Below are positions 46,651-59,913 of a DNA stretch of 64,000 nt, piece after piece. Source of the DNA: Candidatus Peregrinibacteria bacterium (GTDB lineage Bacteria; Patescibacteriota; Gracilibacteria; UBA1369; LOWO2-01-FULL-3); assembly GCA_018654255.1 (NCBI GenBank), contig JABILX010000003.1, positions 13,030-77,029 on the forward strand, given 5' to 3'. Numbering within the stretch: position 1 is the stretch's first letter; the number at the start of each line of letters is the position of its first letter. Below the pieces are notes generated by a model. It did no database searches. It was not told where the DNA came from and saw only the letters and a program-made list of their open reading frames with translations. A program made the translations under genes and the position numbers.

Positions 46651-48615
46651 ATGGCAAAAATCATAGGAATAGATCTAGGAACAACCAACTCATGCGTCGC
46701 TGTCATGGAAGGTGGTGAACCAACTGTAATCGCAAATTCAGAAGGCGCACGCACCACTCCATCAGTTGTCGCTATCAAAGACGGTGAACGACTAGTAGGA
46801 ATCACTGCAAAACGTCAAGCCGTCACAAATACAGACAACACTATTTATTCAGCAAAACGATTCATCGGACGACAATTTTCCGAAGCAAAAAAAGACATTG
46901 AACAAGTTGCATTTGGATGCAAAGAAGGAAAAGGAGGAGAAGTAGAGATGATTCTAGAAGGCAAACAAAAACGTCCTGCTGAAATCGCAGCAATGGTTCT
47001 TCAAAAACTCAAAACAGACGCTGAAAGCTACCTCGGTGAAAAAGTCACAGAGGCAGTAATCACAGTCCCTGCATACTTCAACGATTCACAAAGACAAGCA
47101 ACAAAAGACGCCGGAAAAATCGCCGGACTTGAAGTCAAAAGAATCATAAACGAACCAACAGCAGCGGCTCTCGCATACGGAGTCGACAAAAAAGGCGGTG
47201 ACAAAACAGTCGCAGTCTACGACCTCGGTGGAGGAACTTTCGATATCTCAATCCTTGACCTTGGAGAAGGAGTTTTCAAGGTTTTATCAACAAACGGAAA
47301 CACCCAACTCGGAGGTGACGATTTCGACCGAAAGATCATGGAATATTTAGTCGCTGAATTCAAAAAAGATCAAGGCGTAGATTTGAGCAAAGACAAAACT
47401 GCAGTTCAACGTCTGCTCGAAGCTTCAGAAAAAGCAAAAGCTGAACTCTCATCAACACACGAGACAACGATCAGCCTACCATTCATCACATCAGACTCAG
47501 ACGGAGGTCCAAAACACTTCGAAATGAAACTCACACGAAGCAAACTCGAAGACCTAGTAGCAGACCTAATAGAAGCAACTGTCGAACCATGTCAGAAAGC
47601 AATGGACGACGCAAAAACATACGCATCAGACATCGATGAGATCATCCTAGTCGGAGGATCAACTCGTATGCCAGCTGTTCAAAAGAAAGTCGAAGAGATC
47701 TTCGGAAAAGAACCACACAGAGGACTCAACCCAGACGAAGTAGTAGCGATGGGAGCCGCTCTCCAAGGCGGAATTCTCCAAGGCGACAGCAACGTAAAAG
47801 ACATTCTGCTCGTAGACGTCACTCCCCTATCACTCGGTATCGAAACTCTCGGCGGAGTAAACACAGTCCTGATAGAACGAAATACCGCAATCCCAACATC
47901 AAAATCACAAATTTTCTCAACAGCTGCCGACAACCAACCAGGCGTAGAAGTCCACGTCCTACAAGGTGAACGCCCAATGGCCATCGACAACAAATCCCTC
48001 GGGAAATTCATGTTGGACGGAATTCCACCAGCACCTCGCGGAGTACCACAGGTCGAAGTAACTTTTGAGATCGATTCAAACGGAATCTTGAACGTCAAAG
48101 CCCAAGACAAAGCAACTAGCAAAGAACAACACATCACAATCACAGGAAGCTCAAACCTTTCTGACGAAGACATCGAAAGAATGAAAAAAGAAGCTGAAGC
48201 ACACGCTGACGAAGACAAGAAAAAGAAAGGAGAAATCGAAACTCGCAACAAAGCCGACTCATTAGTAGTACAAGCAGAACGCACATTAAAAGATGCCGGG
48301 GACAAAGTCTCAGACGACATCAAAAAACCTGTTGAAGAAAAGATTGAGACTCTCAAAAAGACACTCGAAAACAAGGACGCAAAACCTGAAGACATCGAAA
48401 AAGACTATGAAGCTCTCTCTGAAGAAATTCAAAAAGTAGGAGCAGAAATGTATAAAGGTGCTCAAGAAGCAGGCAGCGGAAAAACCGACGCCCCAGCCGA
48501 AGACGACGACGTAAAAGTTTACCAAAAAGGTGAAAAACCTGAGGAAAAAAAGAAAGAAAACGAAGTCGAAGGAGAGGTAGTTAAAGAGGAGGAGAAAGAG
48601 AAAAAGAACAAATAG
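46651..48615 (+). CDS. dnaK: chaperone DnaK (Hsp70)
   Basis: [23 protein letters not shown] and [11 protein letters not shown] motifs. Confidence 0.97.
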
Positions 48616-48755
48616 AACAACGAAATCACAAACAAAGCTTGACTATTTTTTAAATCACTGTACGGTACGAAAGTCCATTAGGGATATCTAGGAGTTAGAA
48701 ATTAAATTCCATTAGACATCACTTAACGGAATTTTATTTCTTAACCTTTTATACA

Positions 48756-48953
48756 ATGGAAGGTATCATCAAAAAGCTGAACGAAAAAGGCTTTGGATTC
48801 ATCACTCCGGACGGAGAGGATAAGGACGTTTTCTTTCACAGAAACGACCTTGTAGACGCTGAATTCGACAACCTGAACGAGGGTGACAGAGTCACTTTTG
48901 AAAAGGAGGATTCTGAAAAGGGTCCAAAAGCAGTAGGAGTTACACTCGTTTAA
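48756..48953 (+). CDS. cspA: cold-shock protein (CspA family)
   Basis: KGFGFI (RNP1) and VFFH (RNP2) in a 65-aa protein with a ~100-nt leader. Confidence 0.9.
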   Translation: MEGIIKKLNEKGFGFITPDGEDKDVFFHRNDLVDAEFDNLNEGDRVTFEKEDSEKGPKAVGVTLV

Positions 48954-48978
48954 TTACAGAGCAGTAATAGAATACAAA

Positions 48979-49018
48979 AGGTCATTTGAATACTAGTTAT
49001 TTAAATGGCCTTTTTTTT
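48979..49018 (+). terminator. intrinsic terminator of cspA
   Basis: AGGTCATTTGAAT-actagtt-ATTTAAATGGCCT forms a 13-bp stem with two G-T pairs, followed by T8. Confidence 0.75.
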
Positions 49019-49022
49019 GACA

Positions 49023-49169
49023 AAAAAATACCCTCATGAGAGATTAGAGGAATACAACGAACTTGAAAGACAAGCAAGAGACAACGGGGTCGGTTTATGG
49101 GCCGAAGGTGTATGTGACGACTTCTCACCACCACCAAAACCTCAACGGTCTCAACACCAGAAGAAATAA
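49023..49169 (+). pseudogene. orphan 3' fragment of a thermonuclease gene
   Basis: In frame it reads KKYPHERLEEYNELERQARDNGVGLWAEGVCDDFSPPPKP...*. Over 119 nt it is 104/119 identical to 59764-59882, the 3' end of the intact nuclease gene. There is no upstream coding part. Confidence 0.8.
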
Positions 49170-49274
49170 GTGCAACAATCGGAGGAAAACACTAAAAGAC
49201 CACAACTTCAGCGAAATCATAAACCGCTCAAAAATAGGATACGAGATCGTGCTAACAGAAAGAGCGCCACAAGA

Positions 49275-49610
49275 CTAAGCCTTCAACGCAACATCCCGCA
49301 AAAAACTCGACACTGAAGAATAACCCAACCGAGCCGCCTTTTTCTCAATCGCCTTCTTTTCCTCAACCGCAAGCCTAAACCTAATAATCTCTTTTGTTTT
49401 TTTCTGATAATTCTTCTCAGCTATGATTAACTCTGGCAAATCAATCAACAAGGCCGGAATATCCTCAGCCAAAAACGGTTGAGATATAGCAGCGGCTGGA
49501 CACTCGAAATAGACAACATCCTCCCCCTCATCCTTGTACGAAGAACTAATCGAATAAGGATATTTCTTATTATTAAAAGTTATTAAATGTTTCGTCTTTT
49601 TCTTATTCAT
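49275..49610 (-). CDS. antitoxin-like protein with C-terminal ribbon-helix-helix
   Basis: The C-terminus RFRLAVEEKKAIEKKAARLGYSSVSSFLRDVALKA is CopG/RHH-like. It lies immediately downstream of the hicA-like gene. Confidence 0.55.
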   Translation of the reverse strand: MNKKKTKHLITFNNKKYPYSISSSYKDEGEDVVYFECPAAAISQPFLAEDIPALLIDLPELIIAEKNYQKKTKEIIRFRLAVEEKKAIEKKAARLGYSSVSSFLRDVALKA

Positions 49611-49622
49611 AGAAATTCATTT

Positions 49623-49805
49623 TTAATAATTTTGAACGGGAATCGAGACCTCAACGTTACGAAACATATGCTTGAACTTCACATGACTCCCCTTCGCCTC
49701 TACCCTTTCAAACCCAAACCACATCAATATCCGACAAACCTCCCAAACCTTAAGACTCCCCGGATTCTCCAAAAACTTCTTTATCAACTTTTCTTTTCGA
49801 CTCAA
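49623..49805 (-). CDS. hicA: HicA-family toxin (mRNA interferase)
   Basis: 60 aa with a HicA-like pattern in FGFERVEAKGSHVKFKH. Confidence 0.7.
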   Translation of the reverse strand: MSRKEKLIKKFLENPGSLKVWEVCRILMWFGFERVEAKGSHVKFKHMFRNVEVSIPVQNY

Positions 49806-49860
49806 ACACTTGTGGTTACATTATATAAAAATATAGCTACAAAGTCAACCCAAACACAAC

Positions 49861-50742
49861 TCAAAGCGGACTTCTAACGCCACGAAGCCCCCTCTTCGTC
49901 ACCCGCGTATAAAGCTGAGTCGTCTTCACATCCCGATGCCCCAAAAGCTCCTGCACATAACGCAAATCCACCCCATCCTCGAGAAGATGTGTCGCAAAAC
50001 TATGCCTCAACGAATGAAACGACACATCACCCCTAATCCCCAAACGAACTAAACACTGCGAAAAAACCTTCTGCGCCGATCGACTAGTCAACCTGCCACC
50101 CCTATTACTCGGAAAAACATAATCCCGCCCAGCACTCCCATCAACAAACGCCCAAAGCTCCCGCGAAATCCTATCCGGCAACAACGTCACCCGATCTTTG
50201 CCGCCCTTCCCACAACGCACATTGATAAACCCATTCCCAAAATCCAAATCCCCCACCCGAAGACTCACAACTTCACTCACCCGCAGCCCCGCCCCGTATG
50301 CAACCGAAATCAACAAACGATGTTTTTGATTCTCAATCCCCCTAATCACCCGACGAACCTCAGTTCGATCGAGCACCCTCGGCAACCGAAGCGACCGTTT
50401 GGCACATTTGATGCTTTTCCCCACATCCCTCTCCAAAATCTCCCTATAGAAAAACTTCACCGCATTCAACGCCAGATTCACAGTCTGCGGCGCAGCCCCC
50501 TCATCAATTTTTTTCAGAAGAAATCTCTTCACGACCGCATCCCCAGTATGCTCCACATTCACGGCAAATTGATCTGGATCAAGCTCAAACAAAAACTCCA
50601 AATACTCCCGCAAATAACCTGTATAACTCTTCAAAGTCCTCGGACTATAATTACGAATCTTCAGCTCAGTCTCCACCACACCCACACACATATAAATGAT
50701 TGTATACTTCGGCGCACCCGGACTAATGTGAAAGATATTCAT
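49861..50742 (-). CDS. IntI-like tyrosine recombinase lacking the integron-integrase-specific insertion
   Basis: Landmarks are LRVGDLDFGNGFINVRCGKGGKDR, HSLRHSFATHLL, LLGHRDVKTTQLYTRV and the C-terminal GLRGVRSPL. Only 58 residues lie between GKGGKDR and HSLRH. An alternative start is MCVG at 50691. Confidence 0.8.
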   Translation of the reverse strand: MNIFHISPGAPKYTIIYMCVGVVETELKIRNYSPRTLKSYTGYLREYLEFLFELDPDQFAVNVEHTGDAVVKRFLLKKIDEGAAPQTVNLALNAVKFFYREILERDVGKSIKCAKRSLRLPRVLDRTEVRRVIRGIENQKHRLLISVAYGAGLRVSEVVSLRVGDLDFGNGFINVRCGKGGKDRVTLLPDRISRELWAFVDGSAGRDYVFPSNRGGRLTSRSAQKVFSQCLVRLGIRGDVSFHSLRHSFATHLLEDGVDLRYVQELLGHRDVKTTQLYTRVTKRGLRGVRSPL

Positions 50743-50865
50743 GATACTCTTACCCTACCCCACCAACCTTACAAAAAACTTAAATAAAACTAAATTTTTT
50801 ATTAAATCCACACCACCAATCCAACTCCACTTCCCGCATCCCCCCATTTTTGCTAGCATAAGTTC

Positions 50866-50885
50866 AGATAAACACTAGTTAGCTG
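50866..50885 (+). other. attI-like junction (first crossover box)
   Basis: CAGATAAACACTA-GTTAGCTG resembles the L'-R' arms of the downstream sites. No left-arm partner is visible upstream. Confidence 0.45.
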
Positions 50886-50951
50886 AAATAACAATAAATT
50901 CCCATGCTCCTTCGGAGCATATATAATAACCAAAACTAATTTTCTTTAATT

Positions 50952-51704
50952 ATGAATCAAGTAACAATTTTTTCCATTGTAATACTAATAGCGATCTTTC
51001 TTTTATATCGCTACGTTGAACGTCGCCTGAATCAAATTGAAAACAGAATTGCTCATAAGGACGTGGTTCCGGAAAACAATGAAGCAAAAAATTCTTTAAC
51101 GGCTGTTGAAAAAAAATTGAGCGCAATCCAAAACTTGTGCTCGCCGCTTTTTTTGTTAAATATTTTCGACACATGGAGCAGTCTTACAACCGATGACTCA
51201 ACACAATTAGAGCTATTGGTTAAAGATTTTGAAGAAGCGGAAGAAACAAGAGTGTCGAAAATCAAAGGGGTAAATGATACCGAAAAAGAGGAACTCCAAG
51301 AATATGAGGAAAAGCATCCTAATAAAAAAGAGTTTGAACCTAGTCATAGCCTGAAATGCGACATACTCGCGGCGAGCACAGCAATAGTAATCAGACAAAC
51401 ACTGCATGAGCAACTAGAAGCCGTTAAAGAACTGTTTTTTGATGTCTTAAATGGGAAAATCTCCATTAAAGAAGCACGTCAAAAATCAATAAAAATCGCT
51501 TCAAGAAAAGACATTCATGATCTGGAAAACACTTTGTATTCACCAGAACTTTATGCCAATGATATTGAAAAGGATAAGGACATTCACCCTGAAATCAAAA
51601 AACAGTTCAAAGAATTTTTTGCAATGTATCAAAAACGTTGGGGCGACAATAAGTGGAAAGATCGCTTGAAATGGTACAAGGAAATGGAAAATTACGAAAA
51701 TTAG
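50952..51704 (+). CDS. cassette 1 ORF, hypothetical (N-terminal TM, coiled region)
   Basis: 250-aa ORF that starts 73 nt after the junction at 50879. It is AT-rich and lacks the host A/C bias. Confidence 0.6.
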   Translation: MNQVTIFSIVILIAIFLLYRYVERRLNQIENRIAHKDVVPENNEAKNSLTAVEKKLSAIQNLCSPLFLLNIFDTWSSLTTDDSTQLELLVKDFEEAEETRVSKIKGVNDTEKEELQEYEEKHPNKKEFEPSHSLKCDILAASTAIVIRQTLHEQLEAVKELFFDVLNGKISIKEARQKSIKIASRKDIHDLENTLYSPELYANDIEKDKDIHPEIKKQFKEFFAMYQKRWGDNKWKDRLKWYKEMENYEN

Positions 51705-51748
51705 TTTTGGTTATTATTCGCCTTCGGCGAGGGAATTTATTGTTACAT

Positions 51749-51879
51749 CAGCTAACAATGAATAACTGGTTCACTCACTCCGCTACGCTTCGTTCGTTCT
51801 CCCAAATTTGGCGGCGGTATGTCGCTCCGCTCCAAATTATACCGCCACCAAACTTCAGTTATTCATGGACGTTATACGC
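51749..51879 (+). repeat. attC-like site 1
   Basis: CAGCTAAC-a-ATGAATAACTG ... TTTGGCGGCGGTAT/ATACCGCCACCAAA ... CAGTTATTCAT-ggac-GTTATACGC. Its R'' is the exact complement of GTTAGCTG at 50878. Confidence 0.6.
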
Positions 51880-52027
51880 AATTCAAAAAATATTTTTCTT
51901 TTAATAAGGAATTTTGACAGGCTTTTTAAAAGGGGAATAAATTTGATTTTTAATTTATAATGAGGGGGATAGCGGTATTTTCTCCGCTTCTCTCCGAAAA
52001 TGATTTATAATTTAACCAAAAATTATT

Positions 52028-53248
52028 ATGGGATTTGAAACACCAACACCGCCTGAAGCACACGATACTTCCAATGCTATTGAAAAACCAAAACCGATTC
52101 CAGAACCAGCAGAGAAATCTGTTGACGATCAGAGACAAGAAACAAAAATGTCTTCTCCTGATTTAAGTAATCAATCTCCAAAACAAGAACAGGAAGATCA
52201 AACCAAAATAGATCAAATTAGAGAACAGTTAGATTTAGAAAATGAAAATTTAGTGACTAAACAGGATATTTTAAACCCTGAAGAAGCAAAAGTGAGACTG
52301 TTTGCGCTGATGGATGAAATACAGGAAACAAGTGCCACTCCAACCAATAAGGCAAAAACAATAGAAGAAATAACGCAGCTACTTAGAGAAATTTCAAAAA
52401 CAAAGGATCCTAAATCTTATAAATTTTTTAGAGAAGATGGTCACTTTAAACAACTAAAAATTGTCAGTAAATATTTGATTGAAAATTCTCTTGATCGTGA
52501 TTTGCACGAAAGAGTGCTCACTTATCTTGGTAGTGTAGGCATTGAAACAACCCAAGATGAACGAGCGCAAATTATTGATTATTTCAGAGAGAAAGATGAC
52601 GAAAAAAGACGCGACACTTTCATGTCTTATGCACAAAATGGACTTTTAACATTAAAGTCTGCAATTGAGCGTGGAGTGCTAAAAGAATCTTCGTCAACAC
52701 CAGGTGACTTTTCATCATTAGACGACCTTCAAGAATTTTCTTTAGAAGAACATGGAAATGTAAGAGGTTATGAGCTTAGTCCACAAGACATCAATGATGA
52801 ATTATTTTATGGAAGAAATAGTTTCTTTGGTGTTGTTTTAGAAAGAGGTGGAGAAGAAATTGATAGAGCGGGCAAACTACCAAAAGCAGAAGTTCAAAAT
52901 AGATTAAGGAATTCAATGATTTTTATTATGAAATCAGAAAAAGCCGATATCTCTAGGCGCACAGATAATGCCAATAAAGAAGATATCGTGAGAAGAGACA
53001 TAAAACCAGAAGAAATTGATTATTTAATTGTTGATCATTCAAATATCACAGCTGCACAAGAGGCTTTTGGTCATTTACCTTGCAGGATAATTTCTGCTGA
53101 TACTGTTGAAGCTAAACTTCAAAATTTCTTTGAAGAACCTTATAAATTACCAGATTATAAAGGTGAAGTAGAAAAAATAGCAAAAAATGAAGGTGAGGTT
53201 TGGTGTCATATCGCCAGACTTCCAGTAGATACGTATCCTGAAGAATAA
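52028..53248 (+). CDS. cassette 2 ORF, hypothetical
   Basis: 406-aa ORF with no motif recognised. It is followed by a perfect 17-bp hairpin, GTTTTGGATTTTGGGCA/TGCCCAAAATCCAAAAC (53252-53302). Confidence 0.6.
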   Translation: MGFETPTPPEAHDTSNAIEKPKPIPEPAEKSVDDQRQETKMSSPDLSNQSPKQEQEDQTKIDQIREQLDLENENLVTKQDILNPEEAKVRLFALMDEIQETSATPTNKAKTIEEITQLLREISKTKDPKSYKFFREDGHFKQLKIVSKYLIENSLDRDLHERVLTYLGSVGIETTQDERAQIIDYFREKDDEKRRDTFMSYAQNGLLTLKSAIERGVLKESSSTPGDFSSLDDLQEFSLEEHGNVRGYELSPQDINDELFYGRNSFFGVVLERGGEEIDRAGKLPKAEVQNRLRNSMIFIMKSEKADISRRTDNANKEDIVRRDIKPEEIDYLIVDHSNITAAQEAFGHLPCRIISADTVEAKLQNFFEEPYKLPDYKGEVEKIAKNEGEVWCHIARLPVDTYPEE

Positions 53249-53426
53249 GGAGTTTTGGATTTTGGGCATTCACCTCTAACCCCTCTGCCCAAAATCCAAA
53301 ACAAAAAACAAATTTATAATTATTGTATGAAAAGTCTGTCAAAATGAAATTGAATGAAAAATATTTTTTGAACTTCTCGCTATCGCTCGACCACATTGCA
53401 TTCTTGCTCCACTGCGTTCCGCTCGG

Positions 53427-53545
53427 GGCGTATAACACAGTATATCTGGCTCGCTCGTGCCCTTGCTCGACCCATATTTGCCAAAAACTCATTGATTTTA
53501 AAAGGAATTTTGGCAAACATCAGATATACTGAAACGTTGTACGCC
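53427..53545 (+). repeat. attC-like site 2
   Basis: GGCGTATAAC-a-CAGTATATCTG ... TTTGCCAAAA/TTTTGGCAAA ... CAGATATACTG-aaac-GTTGTACGCC. Its R'' GCGTATAAC is the exact complement of GTTATACGC at 51871. Confidence 0.6.
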
Positions 53546-53943
53546 ATAACAAAAAGCCCCAAGTTCCAAATAGCATTTTCAGTAGCAGATAGAGTTTAAA
53601 GTAGAAATTAACACATCACTGAGTCAACCTCCTGTAAATCAAGTCACCTTAACTTACAATCTGTCTGTCACTTCTCTCTAAACACCAAGCCCATTTAGAA
53701 CAAGTTGACAGTGACCATAAACCTTTGAGAAAGCTTACAACCAGACTTATTATTGCCATCCAAAACTTGAGGCACAACTAGCGACAAATAATTCCAATTT
53801 ATCACCACTTGCGCCCCGAGTTTCGCGTATTTTTTAAAGATCACTACAATCATAGTACCACATTTATAAAACAAAATCAAGTATTTTCAGACAAAAAATC
53901 CTTAATGTTTGGGCTTTTTGTTACACGCTCACTTCGTTCGCTA

Positions 53944-54132
53944 GCGCACAACAAAAGTATATATGGTTCACTCACGTTTTGCGATTCTTAAATGAAGGCA
54001 AATCCAAAACTCCCCTACTTTTAACCAATCCTTTACATCTCCACCGTTCTCCCAACTTGTTGCGAGGTGATCCCGACAAGTCGGGACCATTGTACCTCAC
54101 CCCAAGTTCACATATACTTTGGCCGTTGTGTG
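53944..54132 (+). repeat. attC-like site 3
   Basis: GCGCACAAC-a-AAAGTATATATG ... CATATACTTT-ggcc-GTTGTGTG. Its R'' matches the complement of the preceding R' (GCGTACAAC) at 8/9. It shares GGTTCACTCAC and CGTTCTCCCA blocks with site 1. Confidence 0.55.
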
Positions 54133-54190
54133 ATATAATGAAAAAAACAAAGTTTATATTTTTGATAATTTATCCATAACCAAATAAAAA

Positions 54191-54616
54191 ATGGAACAAA
54201 ATCAACCAACACAAACCAAAAAACCTCCGCTCGGCATAAAAATAATGGCCGGAATATTACTCCTGATAGGTCTCGTTATAGGATTCGATGTGTTGTCTTC
54301 AATTAGCGCAATACTGTTTGGTGGATGGATGTTAGTCACAGGCATCGTCGCATTAATTCTCTTCATTTACACAGAAAAAACCAGCATCAACATGTTCAAA
54401 ATGAAATCGAGCAACAAAATAAACTACTACATTGCCCTCTTTCTGGATATGCTATATATATGCTCAATGCCATTAAGGGAAACCCTTATACTTACACACG
54501 AAACACCATCAGCAGATACATTTCTAGTAGCAATAATATTAACGGTAATTGTGTTCGCAGTCCTTGCACTACCATTCTTTTTCATTACTAGAAAGCACAA
54601 AGATCTATACGTATAG
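54191..54616 (+). CDS. cassette 4 ORF, hypothetical 4-TM membrane protein
   Basis: 141-aa hydrophobic ORF that starts 65 nt after the junction at 54126. Confidence 0.55.
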   Translation: MEQNQPTQTKKPPLGIKIMAGILLLIGLVIGFDVLSSISAILFGGWMLVTGIVALILFIYTEKTSINMFKMKSSNKINYYIALFLDMLYICSMPLRETLILTHETPSADTFLVAIILTVIVFAVLALPFFFITRKHKDLYV

Positions 54617-54668
54617 AATAAATTATCAAAAATATTAAGCCTGCTTCGCAGCCTTATTTTTCATTACA

Positions 54669-54792
54669 GCACACAACAGAGTATGTGCGGCTCGCTTCCG
54701 CAAGCGGAGCACTCACCCATATTGACCAGTGATACGCTTTCAGCGTATTTTATCACTGGTCAACATCGCATACGATCCGACCGTTGTGTGCC
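54669..54792 (+). repeat. attC-like site 4
   Basis: CACACAAC-ag-AGTATGTGCG ... TTGACCAGTGATA/TATCACTGGTCAA ... CGCATAC-gatccgacc-GTTGTGTGCC. Its R'' is the exact complement of GTTGTGTG at 54125. Confidence 0.6.
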
Positions 54793-54861
54793 ATTTCAGG
54801 TTTGACAAATCCCATAATAAACATATATAAATCTACTCCTATTCTATAAACAAGATTAAAC

Positions 54862-55068
54862 ATGACAAATACACCCGATCAAGAAACAGAGATAACCATA
54901 GATGAGAGAGTCGCTGTCCAAGTCGACTTGGAATTAACAACAAGAGCTATAAAATGTCAAACAAGACTAACCCCAGACAGTAAAACAACCATAGTCAAGG
55001 TAAGCACATCTGTAGAAGATCGTGTAAGACAACTGCTATCAAGCCTAGGATTCAAAATAACTAAATAA
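54862..55068 (+). CDS. cassette 5 ORF, hypothetical small protein
   Basis: 68-aa ORF that starts 78 nt after the junction at 54784. Confidence 0.45.
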   Translation: MTNTPDQETEITIDERVAVQVDLELTTRAIKCQTRLTPDSKTTIVKVSTSVEDRVRQLLSSLGFKITK

Positions 55069-55169
55069 TTATGAATGAAATTTTAGAAGGGGTTTCTTTC
55101 GAGCCACTATCACCTCGGCAAAAGCCAGCTTGTATAAATAACAGCGCTGAACACAAATGCGACAATCCT

Positions 55170-55314
55170 GCCACACAAGAAGCAGTACACGGAATTAATA
55201 GAGTTAGATGTTGTGATGAAGATCCCTGCAAGATAAGAGCAGCAACCCTCGCAAAAATAAGTAAAGAATTGCAATAATTTTGCAACATCGTACACACACC
55301 GACCGTTGCGCACC
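55170..55314 (+). repeat. attC-like site 5 (right arm clear, left arm degenerate)
   Basis: The right arm CATCGTACACACACCGACC-GTTGCGCACC matches the family. The candidate left box GCCACACAAG matches the complement of the preceding R' (GGCACACAAC) at 8/10. Confidence 0.4.
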
Positions 55315-55387
55315 ATAATCCCGAGAAATTATTTGACATAACCCCATTATTCACGTATAGTTGCCCCTATTTTTTTAAACCCTATTT

Positions 55388-55630
55388 ATGTCAGAATCAG
55401 ATAAGATTCTTGTTGTTACTGAGAAAGGCGCTATACCTCTTCCAGAAACTTCAGCACTCATCCCTAGGATAGAAGCAATCATTGATGATCCAGAAACCAA
55501 AGCTATTAAACGAGATGAAATTGGTGACATAATCGTAAATACAGGAACCCTGCTGCTAGCTATTAAGCCCCAACAACTTGAACTCAGGGCAGAAGAAGTC
55601 CTAAAAGAGATATTAGGCGACAGAGACTAG
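55388..55630 (+). CDS. cassette 6 ORF, hypothetical small protein
   Basis: 80-aa ORF that starts 82 nt after the junction at 55306. Confidence 0.45.
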   Translation: MSESDKILVVTEKGAIPLPETSALIPRIEAIIDDPETKAIKRDEIGDIIVNTGTLLLAIKPQQLELRAEEVLKEILGDRD

Positions 55631-55636
55631 GCGGCT

Positions 55637-55725
55637 TATTCACCCATGTTTGACGAGGGTAAGTCTTTCGGCGTATTTTACCGCTGTCAAACATCACACA
55701 ACAGATGTATGTGCGGCTCGTTTCC
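55637..55725 (+). repeat. rearranged attC-like fragment (central block followed by a left arm)
   Basis: TTCACCCATGTTTGAC...GTCAAACATC is homologous to the centre of site 4. It is followed directly by CACACAACAGATGTATGTGCGGCTCG, near-identical to the left arm of site 4. No right arm follows. Confidence 0.45.
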
Positions 55726-55768
55726 TTCGTTAGCAGAAATATCGTTTACAACACTTAACAATAAAAAC

Positions 55769-56185
55769 ATGAACAAACCAACTTCACATTTTGAAGAAGG
55801 AGGTCCAAGCCAAGAACCACAAAGCACCTCCGAAAGAGAAAAACAAGAAAGAGTAGTAGAAATTCTTAGGTTAGTAGAAAAAATTAATGAATCAGGTGCG
55901 CCTTTGCCTTTTCCTGGCATTCCTCAAGAAACTTATTTAAAAATGAAGGCAGATGAAAATGAGGCTCCTGGTTATACTACGCCAATAGACGAAATAATAT
56001 TTAGATGTCAAAGAGAGGGTATAAAAGTAATCACAGGAAGACATCCAGGATCAGGCGGCGTCTTTATTTTACCAGCAGGCAGTGATGATTGTGACATGGA
56101 CAGCATTCTCCCCCGCCAATTAGCAGTTGAGGCTGTTGAAAATGAACATCTTGCAAGATTGATACAGCTAAAAACTAAAAATTGA
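55769..56185 (+). CDS. hypothetical protein
   Basis: ORF from MNKPTSHFEEGG. The upstream part of track ORF 55646.. overlies the attC-like fragment and is not counted. Confidence 0.45.
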   Translation: MNKPTSHFEEGGPSQEPQSTSEREKQERVVEILRLVEKINESGAPLPFPGIPQETYLKMKADENEAPGYTTPIDEIIFRCQREGIKVITGRHPGSGGVFILPAGSDDCDMDSILPRQLAVEAVENEHLARLIQLKTKN

Positions 56186-56210
56186 TTGATTTTTTTAACA
56201 AAATAAAAAC

Positions 56211-56501
56211 ATGGAAAAATACTTTATCTACACCATTACATTTCTATACAGCATTGGAGGACTAATAACGTTCGCTGGATTTTTTCCAACAATGAAGGAC
56301 CTATGGAAAGGAAAACCAAGTGCAAATATTAATACCTACATCATATGGGGAGCAACTACCTTCATCACATCACTATATGCAATTTTTGTCGTAAAAGACT
56401 TGCTTTTCAGCTTGGTAATTAACCTTCAATTAGTAGCATGCGTGATTGTTTTGATCTTGAGACTAAGGCTAAAAGTAAAAAAGTCCAAAAAGACTCCATA
56501 A
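56211..56501 (+). CDS. hypothetical 3-TM membrane protein (PQ-loop/SemiSWEET-like shape)
   Basis: 96 aa with three hydrophobic helices and an FFPTMKDLWKGK loop. The similarity to PQ-loop proteins is only impressionistic. Confidence 0.35.
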   Translation: MEKYFIYTITFLYSIGGLITFAGFFPTMKDLWKGKPSANINTYIIWGATTFITSLYAIFVVKDLLFSLVINLQLVACVIVLILRLRLKVKKSKKTP

Positions 56502-56526
56502 AACCTCATTCCATCTACACCACAAC

Positions 56527-57936
56527 TCACGCCGCCAGAACCCCCTGAGGACCAGACAACACCTTCTCAAACTTTCCAACGTGTTCCAAGAAGTTCTGAG
56601 ACGGAACATTCCACGTCCCAAAGTGCTGTCGATAAAAAGGAATGTCTCCAGCCACTTTGTTACCTTTAGCCTCCAAAAAGAAACATACATCAACTGCCTC
56701 AGACCCAAGAGCCTGCAAAGCCGGAATAATCTTTCTTAAAGTAGTTCCCGTCACCGCATCATTTTCACAAACCAAAATCCTTTTAGCTTCAGTTACAGGC
56801 TTGAAATTCATGCCAACATTTCTCCAGACAGGTTCTCTGTTTTCCCATTCTCGATCTTTTTGATGCCACTCAATATACCTAACATTTCCTCCCATTAATT
56901 CACAAAGCGCAGCCATAGAACATCCAGCATTCATAACACCAACGATCAAGTCATATTGACTAATCAACTCCCCAGCAGCATTAATCATATCAGGCCGAAT
57001 CTCAGTATTCATACTCTCTAGAGGCAATCCTACCTGCCCAGCATAATCCAAAAAGGACCCAAGATTCCCGCGCAATCTATCCTTCACCAAACCATCAACA
57101 AAAGAATCCTTCAAAACTGTCTCAAAATCATCTCCATCACAATCACCATCATGATATTTTAAATAACGAGAAATATAAATCTCCATTTCCTCTTCCGTAA
57201 AAGTACGATAAATCTCGGGAGGTATATGGTAATCATATTCATTCGAATAAACAAACCCTCTGCCATATCTCTTAAGCTCATCATCCAGACCCAACATATT
57301 AAAACCATCTGCAATACCATAAACATTCTTGGAATTTACAAATAATTCATTGATAAATAAAAGGAATTCTTTTAATTCAATTTGCTGTTGACCATCAAGA
57401 GGTTCACCAGATTCATACGAATATTCTTTTCTTACATGATTAACTAATTTTTTAGCCAACTCCATTGAAATATCGCGCCTCGTTTCAGGAGAGTAAGTGG
57501 AATCAAGATACCTATTTCCACATTTTTTAAGACTATCATCAGGAAACCTTTCAGCCAACATATCTCCATCGACAACAACACCCAACAAATCTGCTCTACA
57601 AACAGCACGTACCTCATCAGCCAAATCAAAATCTCCAAGGGCAAGTATCCTATCAACTTCCTCCCCAACTCCCTCCACAATCCCCTCAACGAGATAACGG
57701 TCTCTCAATGCATAAATCTCAACCATCATTTTCTCCAGTTTTGTTTGAAAGCCAGGGATAAAACGTTTTGAAAAAGCAGCAATTTCCCCATCATTTCTAA
57801 TCATGAGTTTAGAAGCCCTGTCATCCTCTCCAAGCATCCAAAAAGCCTCAACATTACCGGTACTTCGAATCTGATGAAGCACGTCACCTGGTTGAAAATC
57901 AATGGTCTCCGAATTTGTAGGCGGTCGATTTCTCAT
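56527..57936 (-). CDS. protein with C-terminal phosphoribosyltransferase-like domain and unknown ~300-aa N-terminal region
   Basis: The PRTase PRPP-loop-like motif RILVCENDAVTGTTLRKI lies about 65 aa from the C-terminus, preceded by YDLIVGVMNAGCSMAA. Confidence 0.5.
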   Translation of the reverse strand: MRNRPPTNSETIDFQPGDVLHQIRSTGNVEAFWMLGEDDRASKLMIRNDGEIAAFSKRFIPGFQTKLEKMMVEIYALRDRYLVEGIVEGVGEEVDRILALGDFDLADEVRAVCRADLLGVVVDGDMLAERFPDDSLKKCGNRYLDSTYSPETRRDISMELAKKLVNHVRKEYSYESGEPLDGQQQIELKEFLLFINELFVNSKNVYGIADGFNMLGLDDELKRYGRGFVYSNEYDYHIPPEIYRTFTEEEMEIYISRYLKYHDGDCDGDDFETVLKDSFVDGLVKDRLRGNLGSFLDYAGQVGLPLESMNTEIRPDMINAAGELISQYDLIVGVMNAGCSMAALCELMGGNVRYIEWHQKDREWENREPVWRNVGMNFKPVTEAKRILVCENDAVTGTTLRKIIPALQALGSEAVDVCFFLEAKGNKVAGDIPFYRQHFGTWNVPSQNFLEHVGKFEKVLSGPQGVLAA

Positions 57937-58045
57937 GAATTTTAATAAGCAAAAAACAAAGAGAAGATATTGTACCAGAAACCCTCAAAAAAGCAACCCC
58001 TTTGAAAAACTCCGCTCAAATTTGCGAGGGATCTCCCTTTGACAT

Positions 58046-58393
58046 ATGATAACACCAATGAACACATTAGAATTCCTCAGACAGTTTCGTTTCAGTGGTT
58101 ACGCTATCTTTGATTTAGTAGCAGCCTTACTTGGTATTTATTTGATATCACCTCTCCTATCCAAACTCTTTTTGAAAATCAGAATTGATATTCCAAAACT
58201 CAACTGGCTATATTTGACCTTACCAATAGGAATACTCGTTCATCTCTTGGTTGGAGAAATGACCCCCATGACTGTAGATTTCCTGAACATACACGACCAT
58301 TACATTTTGAAAATACTGACGATCGGATTATTAGTCCTAGGATTGAGAAACATAAAAATAAGGAAAAAACACAAAGCCACTAACCAACGTTGA
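58046..58393 (+). CDS. hypothetical membrane protein
   Basis: 115 aa with three to four hydrophobic segments. Confidence 0.4.
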   Translation: MITPMNTLEFLRQFRFSGYAIFDLVAALLGIYLISPLLSKLFLKIRIDIPKLNWLYLTLPIGILVHLLVGEMTPMTVDFLNIHDHYILKILTIGLLVLGLRNIKIRKKHKATNQR

Positions 58394-58457
58394 CCAATAA
58401 CATACTCCAACATATGATGTGGTCATCAACTTTTTAATAATCTAAACCAAAACCATC

Positions 58458-59033
58458 ATGCCAACTTTAGAAGGATCAAAAACCGAAAAAAATCTATTAA
58501 AATCTTTCGCTGGAGAATCTCAAGCCAGAATGCGCTATGACTATTTTGCAAAACAAGCAAAAAAAGAAGGGTTAGAACAAATCTCAGCTATTTTTGAAGA
58601 AACAGCCCTCAACGAAAAAGAACACGCAAAAAGATTCTTTAAATTTTTGGAAGGCAGACCTGTTGAAATCACAGCCACCTACCCTGCTGGAAAAATAGGA
58701 ACAAGCCTTGAAAACCTAAAAGCCTCAGCCGAAGGAGAAAACGAAGAATGGACAGAACTATACCCAGAATTCGCCAAAATAGCAGAAGAAGAAGGCTTTC
58801 AAGAAATAGCAGATACTTTCACAAAAATAGCAGAAGTTGAAAAAGCTCACGAAGAAAGATACAAAAAGCTATACAAAAACCTGGAAAAAGGAAACGTTTT
58901 CACCAGCAACGACACCATAACTTGGAAATGCAGAAATTGCGGATACTTACACCAAGGAACTTCTGCTCCAGAAATATGCCCAGCTTGCCTACACCCACAA
59001 GCACACTTCCAAATCAAAGAAAATAATTACTAA
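58458..59033 (+). CDS. rbr: rubrerythrin
   Basis: Ferritin-like diiron motifs ([36 protein letters not shown]) plus the C-terminal rubredoxin CRNCGY...CPAC. Confidence 0.9.
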
Positions 59034-59080
59034 GCCTGGTTGGCTTAAATATTAGAGCATACATAAAAAAGAAAAATTGA

Positions 59081-59170
59081 ATTTCACCCACTCTCCCAAG
59101 TCTGACAGTGGCACGTCGCTTCGCTCAATTGTACCACCGCCAGACTTCGTACATACTCCGACCGTTAGCC
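59081..59170 (+). repeat. orphan attC-like half site (central block plus right arm)
   Basis: ATTTCACCCA..., hairpin AAGTCTGACAGTGGCAC/GTACCACCGCCAGACTT, then CGTACATAC-tccgacc-GTTAGCC. No matching left arm is seen nearby. Confidence 0.45.
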
Positions 59171-59253
59171 AAAATATCTCTCAAATTCACCTTCACATTT
59201 GACAAAAAAGAGTAGTTAGAACTAAAATATTCTCCTTTTAACCAATCTAAATT

Positions 59254-59913
59254 ATGGCAGGACTAAAAGAAGTAGCACTACTCAGCATTGCATTAGCACT
59301 AGCACCCAGTTGCGCCCACCACGACATAAACAACGGAAGAAATCACCCCCCCAAAACAAAAACTACTGAAAGAGTAGAAGAATCCCGACTTGCACTACAA
59401 AAAGTACTCACCGAAGAACATCCAGATCATCCTCCTGCCTACGAAGCTGAGAAACAAGAAGTTCCTGTACTAAAAGTTGTAGACGGAGACACTGTTGATG
59501 TTTATTACAAGGGGAAAAAAGAAAGAATTAGAATAATTGGAATAAACACCCCTGAAACAGTCCATCCATCAAAACCAGTAGAATGCTTTGGGCGAGAAGC
59601 GTCGAATAAAATGAAAGAATTGCTAGAAGGTCAAAAAATTATTATCAGAACAGGACAAGGCTCAGGGGACAGAGGTAAATATGGTCGCCTTTTAAGGTAT
59701 ATAGAGCTTGGTGGTGAAGACATCGGTGCTAAAATGATCGAAGAAGGATACGCCTTTGCCTATAAAAAATATCCTCATGAAAGGTTAGAGGAATACACTA
59801 AACTTGAAAGACAAGCGAGAGAAAACGGAGTCGGATTATGGGCTGAAGGAGTATGTGACGATTTCGTCCCACCACCAAAACCAGAATGGCATCCAGTTCC
59901 TGAAAAAAAATAA
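59254..59913 (+). CDS. thermonuclease (SNase-family) lipoprotein
   Basis: Signal peptide plus lipobox (ALAPSC). SNase blocks are VVDGDTVDV, RIRIIGINTPE, ECFGREAS and YGRLLRYI. Confidence 0.85.
   Translation: MAGLKEVALLSIALALAPSCAHHDINNGRNHPPKTKTTERVEESRLALQKVLTEEHPDHPPAYEAEKQEVPVLKVVDGDTVDVYYKGKKERIRIIGINTPETVHPSKPVECFGREASNKMKELLEGQKIIIRTGQGSGDRGKYGRLLRYIELGGEDIGAKMIEEGYAFAYKKYPHERLEEYTKLERQARENGVGLWAEGVCDDFVPPPKPEWHPVPEKK

Follow-up and report, generated by a model that had tools for sequence, protein, structure and literature searches.

A putative sedentary chromosomal integron with a short recombinase lacking the I2 domain in Candidatus Peregrinibacteria

We analyzed 64,000 nucleotides of a Candidatus Peregrinibacteria genome (assembly GCA_018654255.1, contig JABILX010000003.1, positions 13,030 to 77,029), a stretch that we refer to as the window and number from its first letter. 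At 49861..50742, on the minus strand, it encodes a 293-aa tyrosine recombinase that is divergent from an array of co-oriented, mostly single-gene units. The gene and the array very probably constitute a sedentary chromosomal integron whose integrase is short (Xer-length), related to IntI and Xer, and devoid of the I2 domain. Judging from the DNA, the window contains what appear to be three main parts of an integron system: a recombinase with an attI site, cassettes that end in attC sites, and units that are discrete and mobile. The pairing of a short recombinase with an attC array appears, moreover, to extend across the candidate phyla radiation (CPR; Patescibacteria).

The recombinase is related to IntI and lacks the I2 domain

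The window protein is an intact tyrosine recombinase whose nearest characterized relative is IntI, and it is without the domain that defines IntI. Its ORF is uninterrupted, homologues start near M18, and profile, alignment and model evidence agree on its identity. A preliminary description of this DNA had called the protein IntI-like at its landmarks and Xer-length, and both parts of that description hold. The protein contains GDLDFGNGFINVRCGKGGKDR, HSLRHSFATHLL and LLGHRDVKTTQLYTRV, ends in GVRSPL, and has exactly 58 residues between GKGGKDR and HSLRH. The corresponding interval is 101 residues long in VchIntIA (our sequence of which is 100% identical to database protein P0121) and in 117/118 Vibrio IntI, so that the spacing of about 100 residues given for IntI in the preliminary description was right. 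The interval comprises 100 residues in IntI1 and 66 in Escherichia coli XerD. Among CPR relatives of the window protein, 105 of 119 have the 58-residue form.

Pfam assigned the protein to Phage_int_SAM_4 and Phage_integrase; the E value of the latter (PF00589, 1.7e-40) establishes homology and not a chance motif match. The best NCBIfam model was TIGR02249 (integron integrase), which matched in two stretches and scored 214.6 bits, below its 265-bit cutoff, and the PRK15417 score was 135 against a cutoff of 435. NF040815 (XerA_Arch) came second, with 205 bits against a cutoff of 220, and the XerC (187 versus 335) and XerD (175.5 versus 329.6) models fell short as well, so that all Xer cutoffs were missed.

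When the protein was searched against PDB sequences with phmmer, the top match was VchIntIA (2a3v), split into two segments (query 27-191 with chain 13-172 and query 222-293 with chain 246-317) and leaving about 43 VchIntIA residues without a counterpart; Pyrococcus XerA (4a8e), the second match, aligned as one continuous stretch. In a multiple alignment of the window protein with VchIntIA, a second Vibrio IntI, IntI1 and XerD, the gaps comprised 13, 19 and 11 residues, and the 19-residue block, VWLPTALKEKYPNAPYEFR, holds the I2 helix. An AlphaFold2 model computed from an alignment of 120 relatives (mean predicted local distance difference test score [pLDDT], 91.8) joins the helices at 190-200 and 220-234 by a short loop with small strands and has no helix at the I2 position. 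Foldseek ranked 2a3v first among PDB structures (E=3.7e-15, TM 0.63) and XerA next. The preliminary description had suspected that the integron-specific insertion was missing, and the comparison with IntI, Xer and TIGR02249 and the predicted structure, in which the extra helix-rich subdomain is not seen, bear this out. The catalytic residues R154, K179, H243, R246, H269 and Y278 are invariant across the 120 relatives.

More than 7,900 database proteins match the window recombinase at E<1e-20. The top matches are nearly all CPR proteins of about 270 aa, named XerD, "tyrosine-type recombinase/integrase" or "site-specific tyrosine recombinase/integron integrase," and the 90% cluster of the window protein holds a Candidatus Peregrinibacteria entry. 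The short interval and an xSPL tail are common to all aligned relatives. The landmarks that had been quoted as signs of IntI are present but not specific to it: the xSPL(D) tail and the SAM_4 domain also occur in short relatives from Bacteroidota, Firmicutes, Alphaproteobacteria and DPANN archaea.

In a neighbor-joining tree (46 sequences, 270 columns), canonical IntI was monophyletic at 99%, a clade of CPR proteins plus IntI had 0% support, and a supergroup of everything but E. coli XerC and XerD had 74%. Deeper nodes reached just 40 to 50%. This phylogeny, of the kind that the preliminary description had called for, weakly suggests that the CPR clade is neither nested in nor sister to canonical IntI; it places the clade outside IntI and leaves the deep branching poorly supported. 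Smyshlyaev et al. (2021; PMC8138268) assigned candidate-phyla proteins to a "Cand" subgroup of Xer-related recombinases. One 94%-identical relative (P0001, encoded at L004:10001-10882; related loci are numbered with the prefix L) has unrelated last ~25 residues and different downstream DNA, which points to a 3' gene end that has recombined or was assembled as a chimera.

Array in the window

The recombinase gene, the attI-like site and the array are arranged as follows (positions in the window, + or - strand).

49861..50742, -, tyrosine recombinase gene, 293 aa
50850..50886, +, attI-like site (..GCATAAGTTCAGATAAACACTAG/TT.., the slash marking the crossover); crossover GTT at 50878-50880, 136 nt upstream of the recombinase ATG
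50879..51871, +, cassette 1; ORF 50952-51704, 250 aa, no Pfam family above cutoff
51744..51883, +, attC1; R'' TCAGCTAAC at 51748, R' GTT at 51871; cmsearch 89.3 bits, E=2.8e-17; single-stranded DNA (ssDNA) fold z=-3.4
51872..53536, +, cassette 2; ORF 52028-53248, 406 aa, no Pfam family; first ~140 nt kept in other CPR arrays
53424..53548, +, attC2; R'' GCGTATAAC, R' GTT at 53536-53538; 99.1 bits, E=1.4e-19; fold z=-6.6; junction of an insertion or deletion in L089
53537..54125, +, cassette 3; no ORF of at least 90 aa
53940..54137, +, attC3, a long variant; R' GTT at 54125; 31.3 bits, E=9e-4; also found by hairpin scan and fold
54126..54783, +, cassette 4; ORF 54191-54616, 141 aa, no Pfam family
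54665..54795, +, attC4; R'' GCACACAAC, R' GTT at 54783; 88.4 bits, E=4.4e-17; fold z=-7.3
54784..55316, +, cassette 5; two 68-aa ORFs and a terminal L'-R' half site (55283-55316, R' GTT at 55305)
55609..55741, +, degenerate or rearranged attC, weak (22.9 bits, E=0.084)
55742..59172, +, distal array with decayed sites; rubrerythrin ORF 58458-59033; terminal L'-R' half site 59144-59172, R' GTT at 59164
59254-59913, staphylococcal-nuclease (SNase) ORF, after the distal array

A scanner for AAC...GTT hairpins with 28-nt complementary arms returned exactly four sites from the whole 64-kb window, all of them within the array at 51.7 to 54.8 kb. The distal array, from 55.3 to 59.2 kb, has half or degenerate sites only. 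In other loci the scanner gave a background of 0.17 matches/kb, and a covariance model was used there instead. A strict scan for R''/R' complementarity between 9-mers recovered three of the window's sites and almost none in L001 and L002, because R' is chimeric after integration. Cassette ORFs are mostly without a Pfam family, the rubrerythrin and the staphylococcal-nuclease homologue being the exceptions.

Cassette units and their gain or loss

The same chromosomal slot is occupied in relatives whose recombinases are 84% (L001) and 66% (L002 and L003) identical to that of the window. It is flanked by dnaK-grpE-hrcA and a HicA/NikA-like gene pair on one side and by an SLH/beta-propeller gene and serS on the other. 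The small, co-oriented ORFs between the recombinase gene and the flank form different sets in the window, L001, L002 and L003. Upstream of the gene, the sequence shared by the window, L001 and L002 ends with ..ATAAACA(C/G)(T/G)AGTT, and beyond it they carry different cassettes; the end of the alignment at a shared GTT therefore locates the attI crossover at 50878-50880. The attI junction GTTAGCTGA is the exact complement (9/9) of the R'' box of attC1, and the agreement is 8/9 in L001 and 8/9 in L002.

If cassettes were once circles whose attC was opened at G/TT, each R'' box is expected to match the bases that follow GTT in the preceding site. We compared the six variable bases after GTT in 35 consecutive site pairs from 17 sources (the window and 16 loci). 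R'' matched the preceding site at a mean of 4.63/6 positions (perfectly in 12/35 pairs), compared with 3.37/6 for its own R' (perfectly in 2/35) and 2.87/6 for random pairs from other loci (1.4% perfect); the difference was significant (Wilcoxon p=1.6e-4).

Closely related strains differ by whole cassettes. One contig (L089), 99.2% identical to window positions 48001-53548, carries one extra cassette of 846 nt: identity stops right after the GTT of attC2 (53536-53538) and restarts right after the GTT of the extra cassette's attC, and the R'' box of that attC, TCGTATAAC, is the exact complement (9/9) of the cassette's own first nine bases. In another pair (L088 and L002), the flanks are 100% identical and a 2,948-nt block of five cassettes differs, bounded by the attI GTT and an attC GTT; within it, cassette 1 is present a second time, in a copy with 99.2% identity. 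These comparisons indicate that the cassettes are discrete units, gained or lost recently between strains at GTT.

attC geometry and folding

From the 5' end, the '' arm of the CPR site consists of the R'' box (..TAAC), a single A, L'' (11 nt) and a segment of 25 to 45 nt (GGyTCG..CCCATATT) that is unpaired or branched; after a terminal hairpin, the ' arm continues with AACATC, L', RAAC and R' (GTTA..). Many R boxes match RYYYAAC/GTTRRRY, for example GCCTAAC/GTTAGGC. A 1 x 4 nt internal loop, with a single unpaired base on the '' arm and four on the ' arm, lies between the R and L boxes. The L box forms an 11-bp helix that in most sites is uninterrupted.

In 63 distinct sites taken together, 93% of the cells in the L box are paired, with compensatory changes in 10 of the 11 pairs; sliding the partner strand by 1 to 3 columns lowers pairing over the whole structure to 27 to 40%. 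In the 32 sites that were not seeds of the covariance model, the L box is 91% paired, and 15 of them have all 11 pairs. Mismatches in the R box gather at the three positions after GTT, as expected because R' is chimeric. The ssDNA folds of three window sites were more stable than those of shuffled sequence (z=-3.4, -6.6 and -7.3).

In canonical attC, extrahelical bases near L'' are lodged in a pocket of the integrase (Nivina et al. 2016, PMC5027507), and the I2 domain is held to recognize such bases (PMC4792948). Here, the I2 domain and an interrupted L box are both absent, which suggests that enzyme and site co-vary. The preliminary description had offered two readings, and one of them, non-canonical recognition of the site, fits the 1 x 4 nt loop and the uninterrupted 11-bp L box.

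Pairing of short recombinases with attC across the CPR

Nineteen sites (131 positions, 20 base pairs) went into the attC covariance model, with which we searched both strands of the window and 86 loci (1.10 Mb), counting matches at E<=0.1 and scoring presence per locus at E<=1e-3. There were 69 matches, of which 68 lay upstream of a recombinase gene on the opposite strand; the single misplaced match was weak (E=0.056). Within this search set, no match fell in a non-CPR locus. Among CPR loci with at least 1 kb of sequence upstream of the recombinase gene, 24 of 27 had attC, many of them loci that had given no seed sites, and the placement of attC was constant across lineages whose recombinases are merely 39 to 51% identical. 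The other reading offered earlier, a Xer-like enzyme that acts on attC-like hairpins, is borne out as far as the association of enzyme and attC goes. In 28 of 55 CPR loci, the contig ended less than 700 nt upstream of the gene, compared with 3 that ended less than 700 nt downstream (binomial p=4.6e-6); we attribute the upstream breaks to strain-variable arrays, which disrupt metagenome assemblies. The pairing of a short recombinase with an attC array thus appears to be CPR-wide.

Short relatives from DPANN archaea (Woesearchaeota and Nanoarchaeota, 34 to 38% identity; L055, L057, L062, L067, L079 and L081) have contig ends 258 to 1157 nt upstream of the gene, the same assembly break as in CPR loci. 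Two non-CPR relatives, Bacteroidota-like proteins of 410 to 584 aa with an N-terminal extension and no I2 domain (L066:9608-15189 and L059:9095-13669), are followed downstream, on the same strand, by attC-like sites, each placed after co-oriented ORFs.

L066, 11471-11677, 12302-12502 and 14991-15189, attC-like sites
L059, 12912-13074 and 13506-13669, attC-like sites

In both loci the R'' box of site 2 and the R' box of site 1 are exactly complementary. The CPR attC model did not detect these Bacteroidota-type sites in L066 or L059. Integron-like arrays served by I2-less enzymes may therefore also occur outside the CPR, in an "inverted" orientation.

Mechanism and alternative explanations

We propose that the recombinase would bind the R and L boxes of attC, cleave at the conserved R-box triplet (G/TT on the cassette strand) and carry out strand exchange with the attI beside its gene or with another attC, and that single-gene cassettes would thereby be inserted, excised as circles and reshuffled. 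The attC would probably be used as a folded single strand, with one strand exchanged and the junction resolved by replication, for which XerC-only integration of CTX-phi is a precedent. Instead of an I2 domain reading extrahelical bases, other asymmetric features might guide the choice of strand and partner, for example the 1 x 4 nt loop that parts the R box from the L box, or the conserved 25- to 45-nt unpaired GGyTCG segment of the '' arm.

The DNA itself shows where the crossover lies, that cassettes are units gained or lost recently, that attC has a fixed orientation relative to the gene, and that its arms have stayed complementary. Several points weigh against the mechanism built on them. 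That this enzyme is the recombinase at work would follow from adjacency, orientation and co-distribution. Because GTT is invariant, the cleaved bond, the strand and the number of strands exchanged (one or two) are unreadable from sequence. The covariation counts were drawn from sites chosen or aligned partly by pairing. A complete attC is kept in only 4 to 5 of about 14 cassette-like units in the window, and the distal array has decayed. Finally, the additional domain is described as necessary for the activity of IntI1 (Messier and Roy 2001, as cited in PMC4792948 and PMC7790495).

The main mechanistic rival is a double-strand pathway: the same cassette platform would work by classical recombination at duplex L'-spacer-R' "simple sites," with two ordered strand exchanges as in Xer or Cre, and the hairpin potential of attC would be incidental or serve another use such as transcription termination. 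It would account for an enzyme without I2, the domain held to confer single-strand recombination (PMC7790495), for an attI that resembles the L'-R' half of attC, and for several cassette junctions in the window and L001 that keep only an L'-R' half site; IntI1 itself is capable of full double-strand attI x attI exchange (PMC4792948). Those half sites, however, sit in decayed distal parts of the array. In addition, arms 60 to 150 nt apart co-vary at positions that are not conserved in sequence (compensatory changes in 10 of 11 L-box pairs, 91 to 93% paired), the R box stays complementary across the crossover when the cassette is closed into a circle, and the folds are far more stable than those of shuffled sequence. 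We consider this pathway unlikely, and favor recombination of a folded attC.

A much less likely explanation is that the gene encodes a housekeeping Xer dimer resolvase of the "Cand" subgroup and that the attC arrays are hitchhiking or are served by another enzyme. Public annotation as XerD or tyrosine-type recombinase and the placement of candidate-phyla proteins among Xer-related enzymes (Smyshlyaev et al. 2021, PMC8138268) point that way, as does the near equality of the XerA_Arch and IntI model scores (205 versus 214.6 bits); there is also no second tyrosine recombinase in the 64-kb window, and a dual role is possible. A housekeeping resolvase is hard to reconcile with the 68 of 69 attC matches that lie on one side and in one orientation across lineages 39 to 51% identical, or with a cassette insertion point that is conserved with the gene at 136 nt from its start codon, and every Xer model cutoff was missed. 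The plus strand is C-rich and A-rich across the window (GC skew -0.03 to -0.50, AT skew up to +0.47), and we found no switch in the sign of GC skew within the 64 kb; therefore no replication origin, terminus or dif lies there.

That the window holds a fossil, in which a canonical IntI lost I2 and became inactive and left a decaying relic array, is exceedingly improbable: degenerate or half attC sites in distal cassettes and the requirement of IntI1 for the additional domain (Messier and Roy 2001, as cited in PMC4792948) would suit it, but the 58-residue form is standard (105/119 relatives) with invariant catalytic residues, the CPR clade does not fall inside canonical IntI in the neighbor-joining tree (CPR plus IntI 0%, IntI 99%), the agreement between first cassettes and attI junctions is 9/9, 8/9 and 8/9, and whole cassettes distinguish strains that are 99 to 100% identical, with junctions exactly at GTT, a sign of recent activity.

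Other features of the array and its surroundings

The flanks of cassette 1 (50878-50951 and 51689-51756) form an inverted repeat of 68 to 74 nt that is 90 to 92% complementary and broken by unrelated small GC hairpins. Its outer 9 nt are R' and R''; the remainder would either add about 65 bp to the stem that attC forms in the circular cassette or pair the two untranslated regions of the mRNA, 5' with 3'. We considered cassette 1 as an invertible segment or a miniature inverted-repeat transposable element and rejected this as the main explanation, given that those 9 nt are just the R' and R'' boxes belonging to one cassette.

The start of cassette 2 (51872-52010), which lies between R' and the ORF, is 74 to 76% identical to the sequence that follows R' in four other loci (L014:114-254, L042:81-228, L007:5722-5831 and L025:7002-7130). 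attC2 (53424-53548) is 94.5% identical to a site in a Gracilibacteria locus (L048:6174-6301) whose recombinase is 39% identical and whose adjacent ORFs are unrelated. A horizontal move of the whole cassette was considered on the strength of this identity, but the ORFs differ, and it is not proven.

A promoter scan found no strong promoter-like site between the recombinase gene and attI, in a group whose promoters are poorly known. With the same limit, the best promoter-like matches fell inside cassettes, and their total count was not above that of shuffled sequence. A promoter-like TTGACA-18-TAAATT stands at 51914, at the start of cassette 2, and strong promoter-like sites follow directly after R' in other cassettes, at 55333 and 59199. 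Cassettes may carry their own promoters, with an overall count not above shuffles.

Within the otherwise co-oriented distal array, a 469-aa ORF without a Pfam family (56527-57936, minus strand) is reversed. Directly downstream of the recombinase gene, a HicA-toxin-like ORF (49623-49805) and a NikA-like/antitoxin ORF (49275-49610) lie on the minus strand; the pair is conserved in L001, L003 and L005 and stands outside the array. A 126-nt copy of the 3' end of the SNase ORF (85% identical; 49023-49148 versus 59764-59889), within a 54-aa ORF fragment (49005-49169), stands across the recombinase and toxin-antitoxin genes from the original. An Rfam scan of the window returned one tRNA and nothing else.

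Implications

Integron integrases are defined, and detected by IntegronFinder, through the I2 additional domain, which is held to be the innovation that made folded single-stranded attC sites recombinable. At the system level, the CPR arrangement appears to work like an integron, and its enzyme fails the tests that define the IntI family (the additional domain and the model cutoff). Current tools would probably miss such integrases and at best score the arrays as integrase-less clusters (CALIN). In a full-text literature search, with subscription-only papers outside its scope, we found no account of integrons in the CPR, nor of I2-less integrases paired with attC arrays, and CPR taxon names had no match in the text of the IntegronFinder 2.0 survey. 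A 2026 permafrost study reported that IntegronFinder recognized no complete integron on 97.4% of the contigs carrying "integron-type" recombinases and raised novel attC sites as one possible cause (PMC13323075).

Our results bear on the evolution of attC recombination and on its relation to that of the I2 domain. The field has stated a chicken-and-egg problem, whether I2 or attC came first (PMC4792948), and has named the lack of natural intermediates as an open problem (PMC7790495). A natural, apparently active I2-less enzyme with attC arrays makes both problems testable with real proteins and sites. We tentatively entertain, with slightly less than even confidence, the wider idea that recombination of folded attC needs no I2, that short-recombinase platforms are ancient and widespread, and that the canonical I2-bearing IntI is one later elaboration. 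If so, such platforms would occur throughout the CPR, apparently also in Bacteroidota, whose enzymes have an N-terminal extension, and perhaps among DPANN archaea, and the CPR-type systems would be either the "missing intermediates" or a parallel solution to the chicken-and-egg problem.

CPR bacteria have tiny genomes and account for a large share of bacterial diversity. Among them, integrons would count as a major route of gene flux, and the assembly breaks beside the recombinase genes (28/55 loci) suggest that arrays are systematically lost from metagenome-assembled genomes (MAGs). A compact recombinase that acts on sites defined by structure could also serve as a tool.

Comparison with known systems

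The window resembles sedentary chromosomal integrons such as the Vibrio cholerae superintegron with its Vibrio cholerae repeats (VCRs): the integrase gene is divergent from co-oriented cassettes that are mostly single ORFs of unknown function, attI lies beside the integrase gene, the crossover is at G/TT, and attC sites within one lineage resemble each other, as VCRs do. Toxin-antitoxin genes occur as cassettes in Vibrio superintegrons, whereas the HicA/NikA-like pair of the window lies outside the array.

The attC sites share with those of canonical integrons the R''-L''...L'-R' order, the invariant AAC/GTT and R boxes of which many fit RYYYAAC/GTTRRRY. In canonical attC, the central spacer comprises about 5 x 5-6 unpaired nt. 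In the CPR site, the boxes are instead parted by a loop of 1 x 4 nt, the L box is an uninterrupted 11-bp helix in place of one with extrahelical bases, and the '' arm carries a conserved unpaired segment of 25 to 45 nt. Unlike canonical IntI, the CPR enzyme is without I2 (about 43 aa), scores below the TIGR02249 cutoff and falls outside the IntI clade in the neighbor-joining tree. Many CPR cassettes, moreover, appear to carry their own promoter-like sequence, and the hosts are CPR bacteria, which also sets these systems apart from canonical integrons.

Acinetobacter plasmid pdif modules are likewise gene-sized units bounded by short Xer-type sites. In pdif modules, 28-bp duplex XerC/XerD sites alternate in orientation, whereas the CPR sites are imperfect palindromes of 90 to 200 nt in one orientation and are accompanied by attI and a dedicated recombinase. 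We rejected pdif-type Xer modules as an explanation on site size, orientation and the presence of attI.

With the CTX-phi/XerCD system, an integrative mobile element exploiting Xer (IMEX), the CPR system shares a Xer-length recombinase without I2. CTX-phi is integrated at dif as folded ssDNA by XerC alone, with one strand exchanged and replication resolving the product (PMC7790495); there an ssDNA hairpin recombines with a duplex site, and we propose the same here by analogy. Unlike the CPR system, CTX-phi uses dif and the housekeeping XerC and XerD of its host, and it lacks a cassette array, an attC family and a dedicated recombinase gene next to the site.

Archaeal integrons (Ghaly et al. 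2022, PMC9668308) were, like the present system, a MAG-based extension beyond the usual bacterial phyla, with attC arrays and putative attI sites; unlike the CPR enzymes, archaeal IntIs were reported to have the IntI-specific additional domain (PMC9668308). The CPR recombinases are the same proteins as the ~270-aa candidate-phyla recombinases of the "Cand" subgroup (PMC8138268) and of the NF040815 naming. Smyshlyaev et al. described the insertion as "not fully conserved" within their integron-like subgroup and linked no arrays to such proteins (PMC8138268). Their "Cand" work linked neither arrays nor attC to these recombinases, which are tied here to attC arrays in 24 of 27 testable loci.

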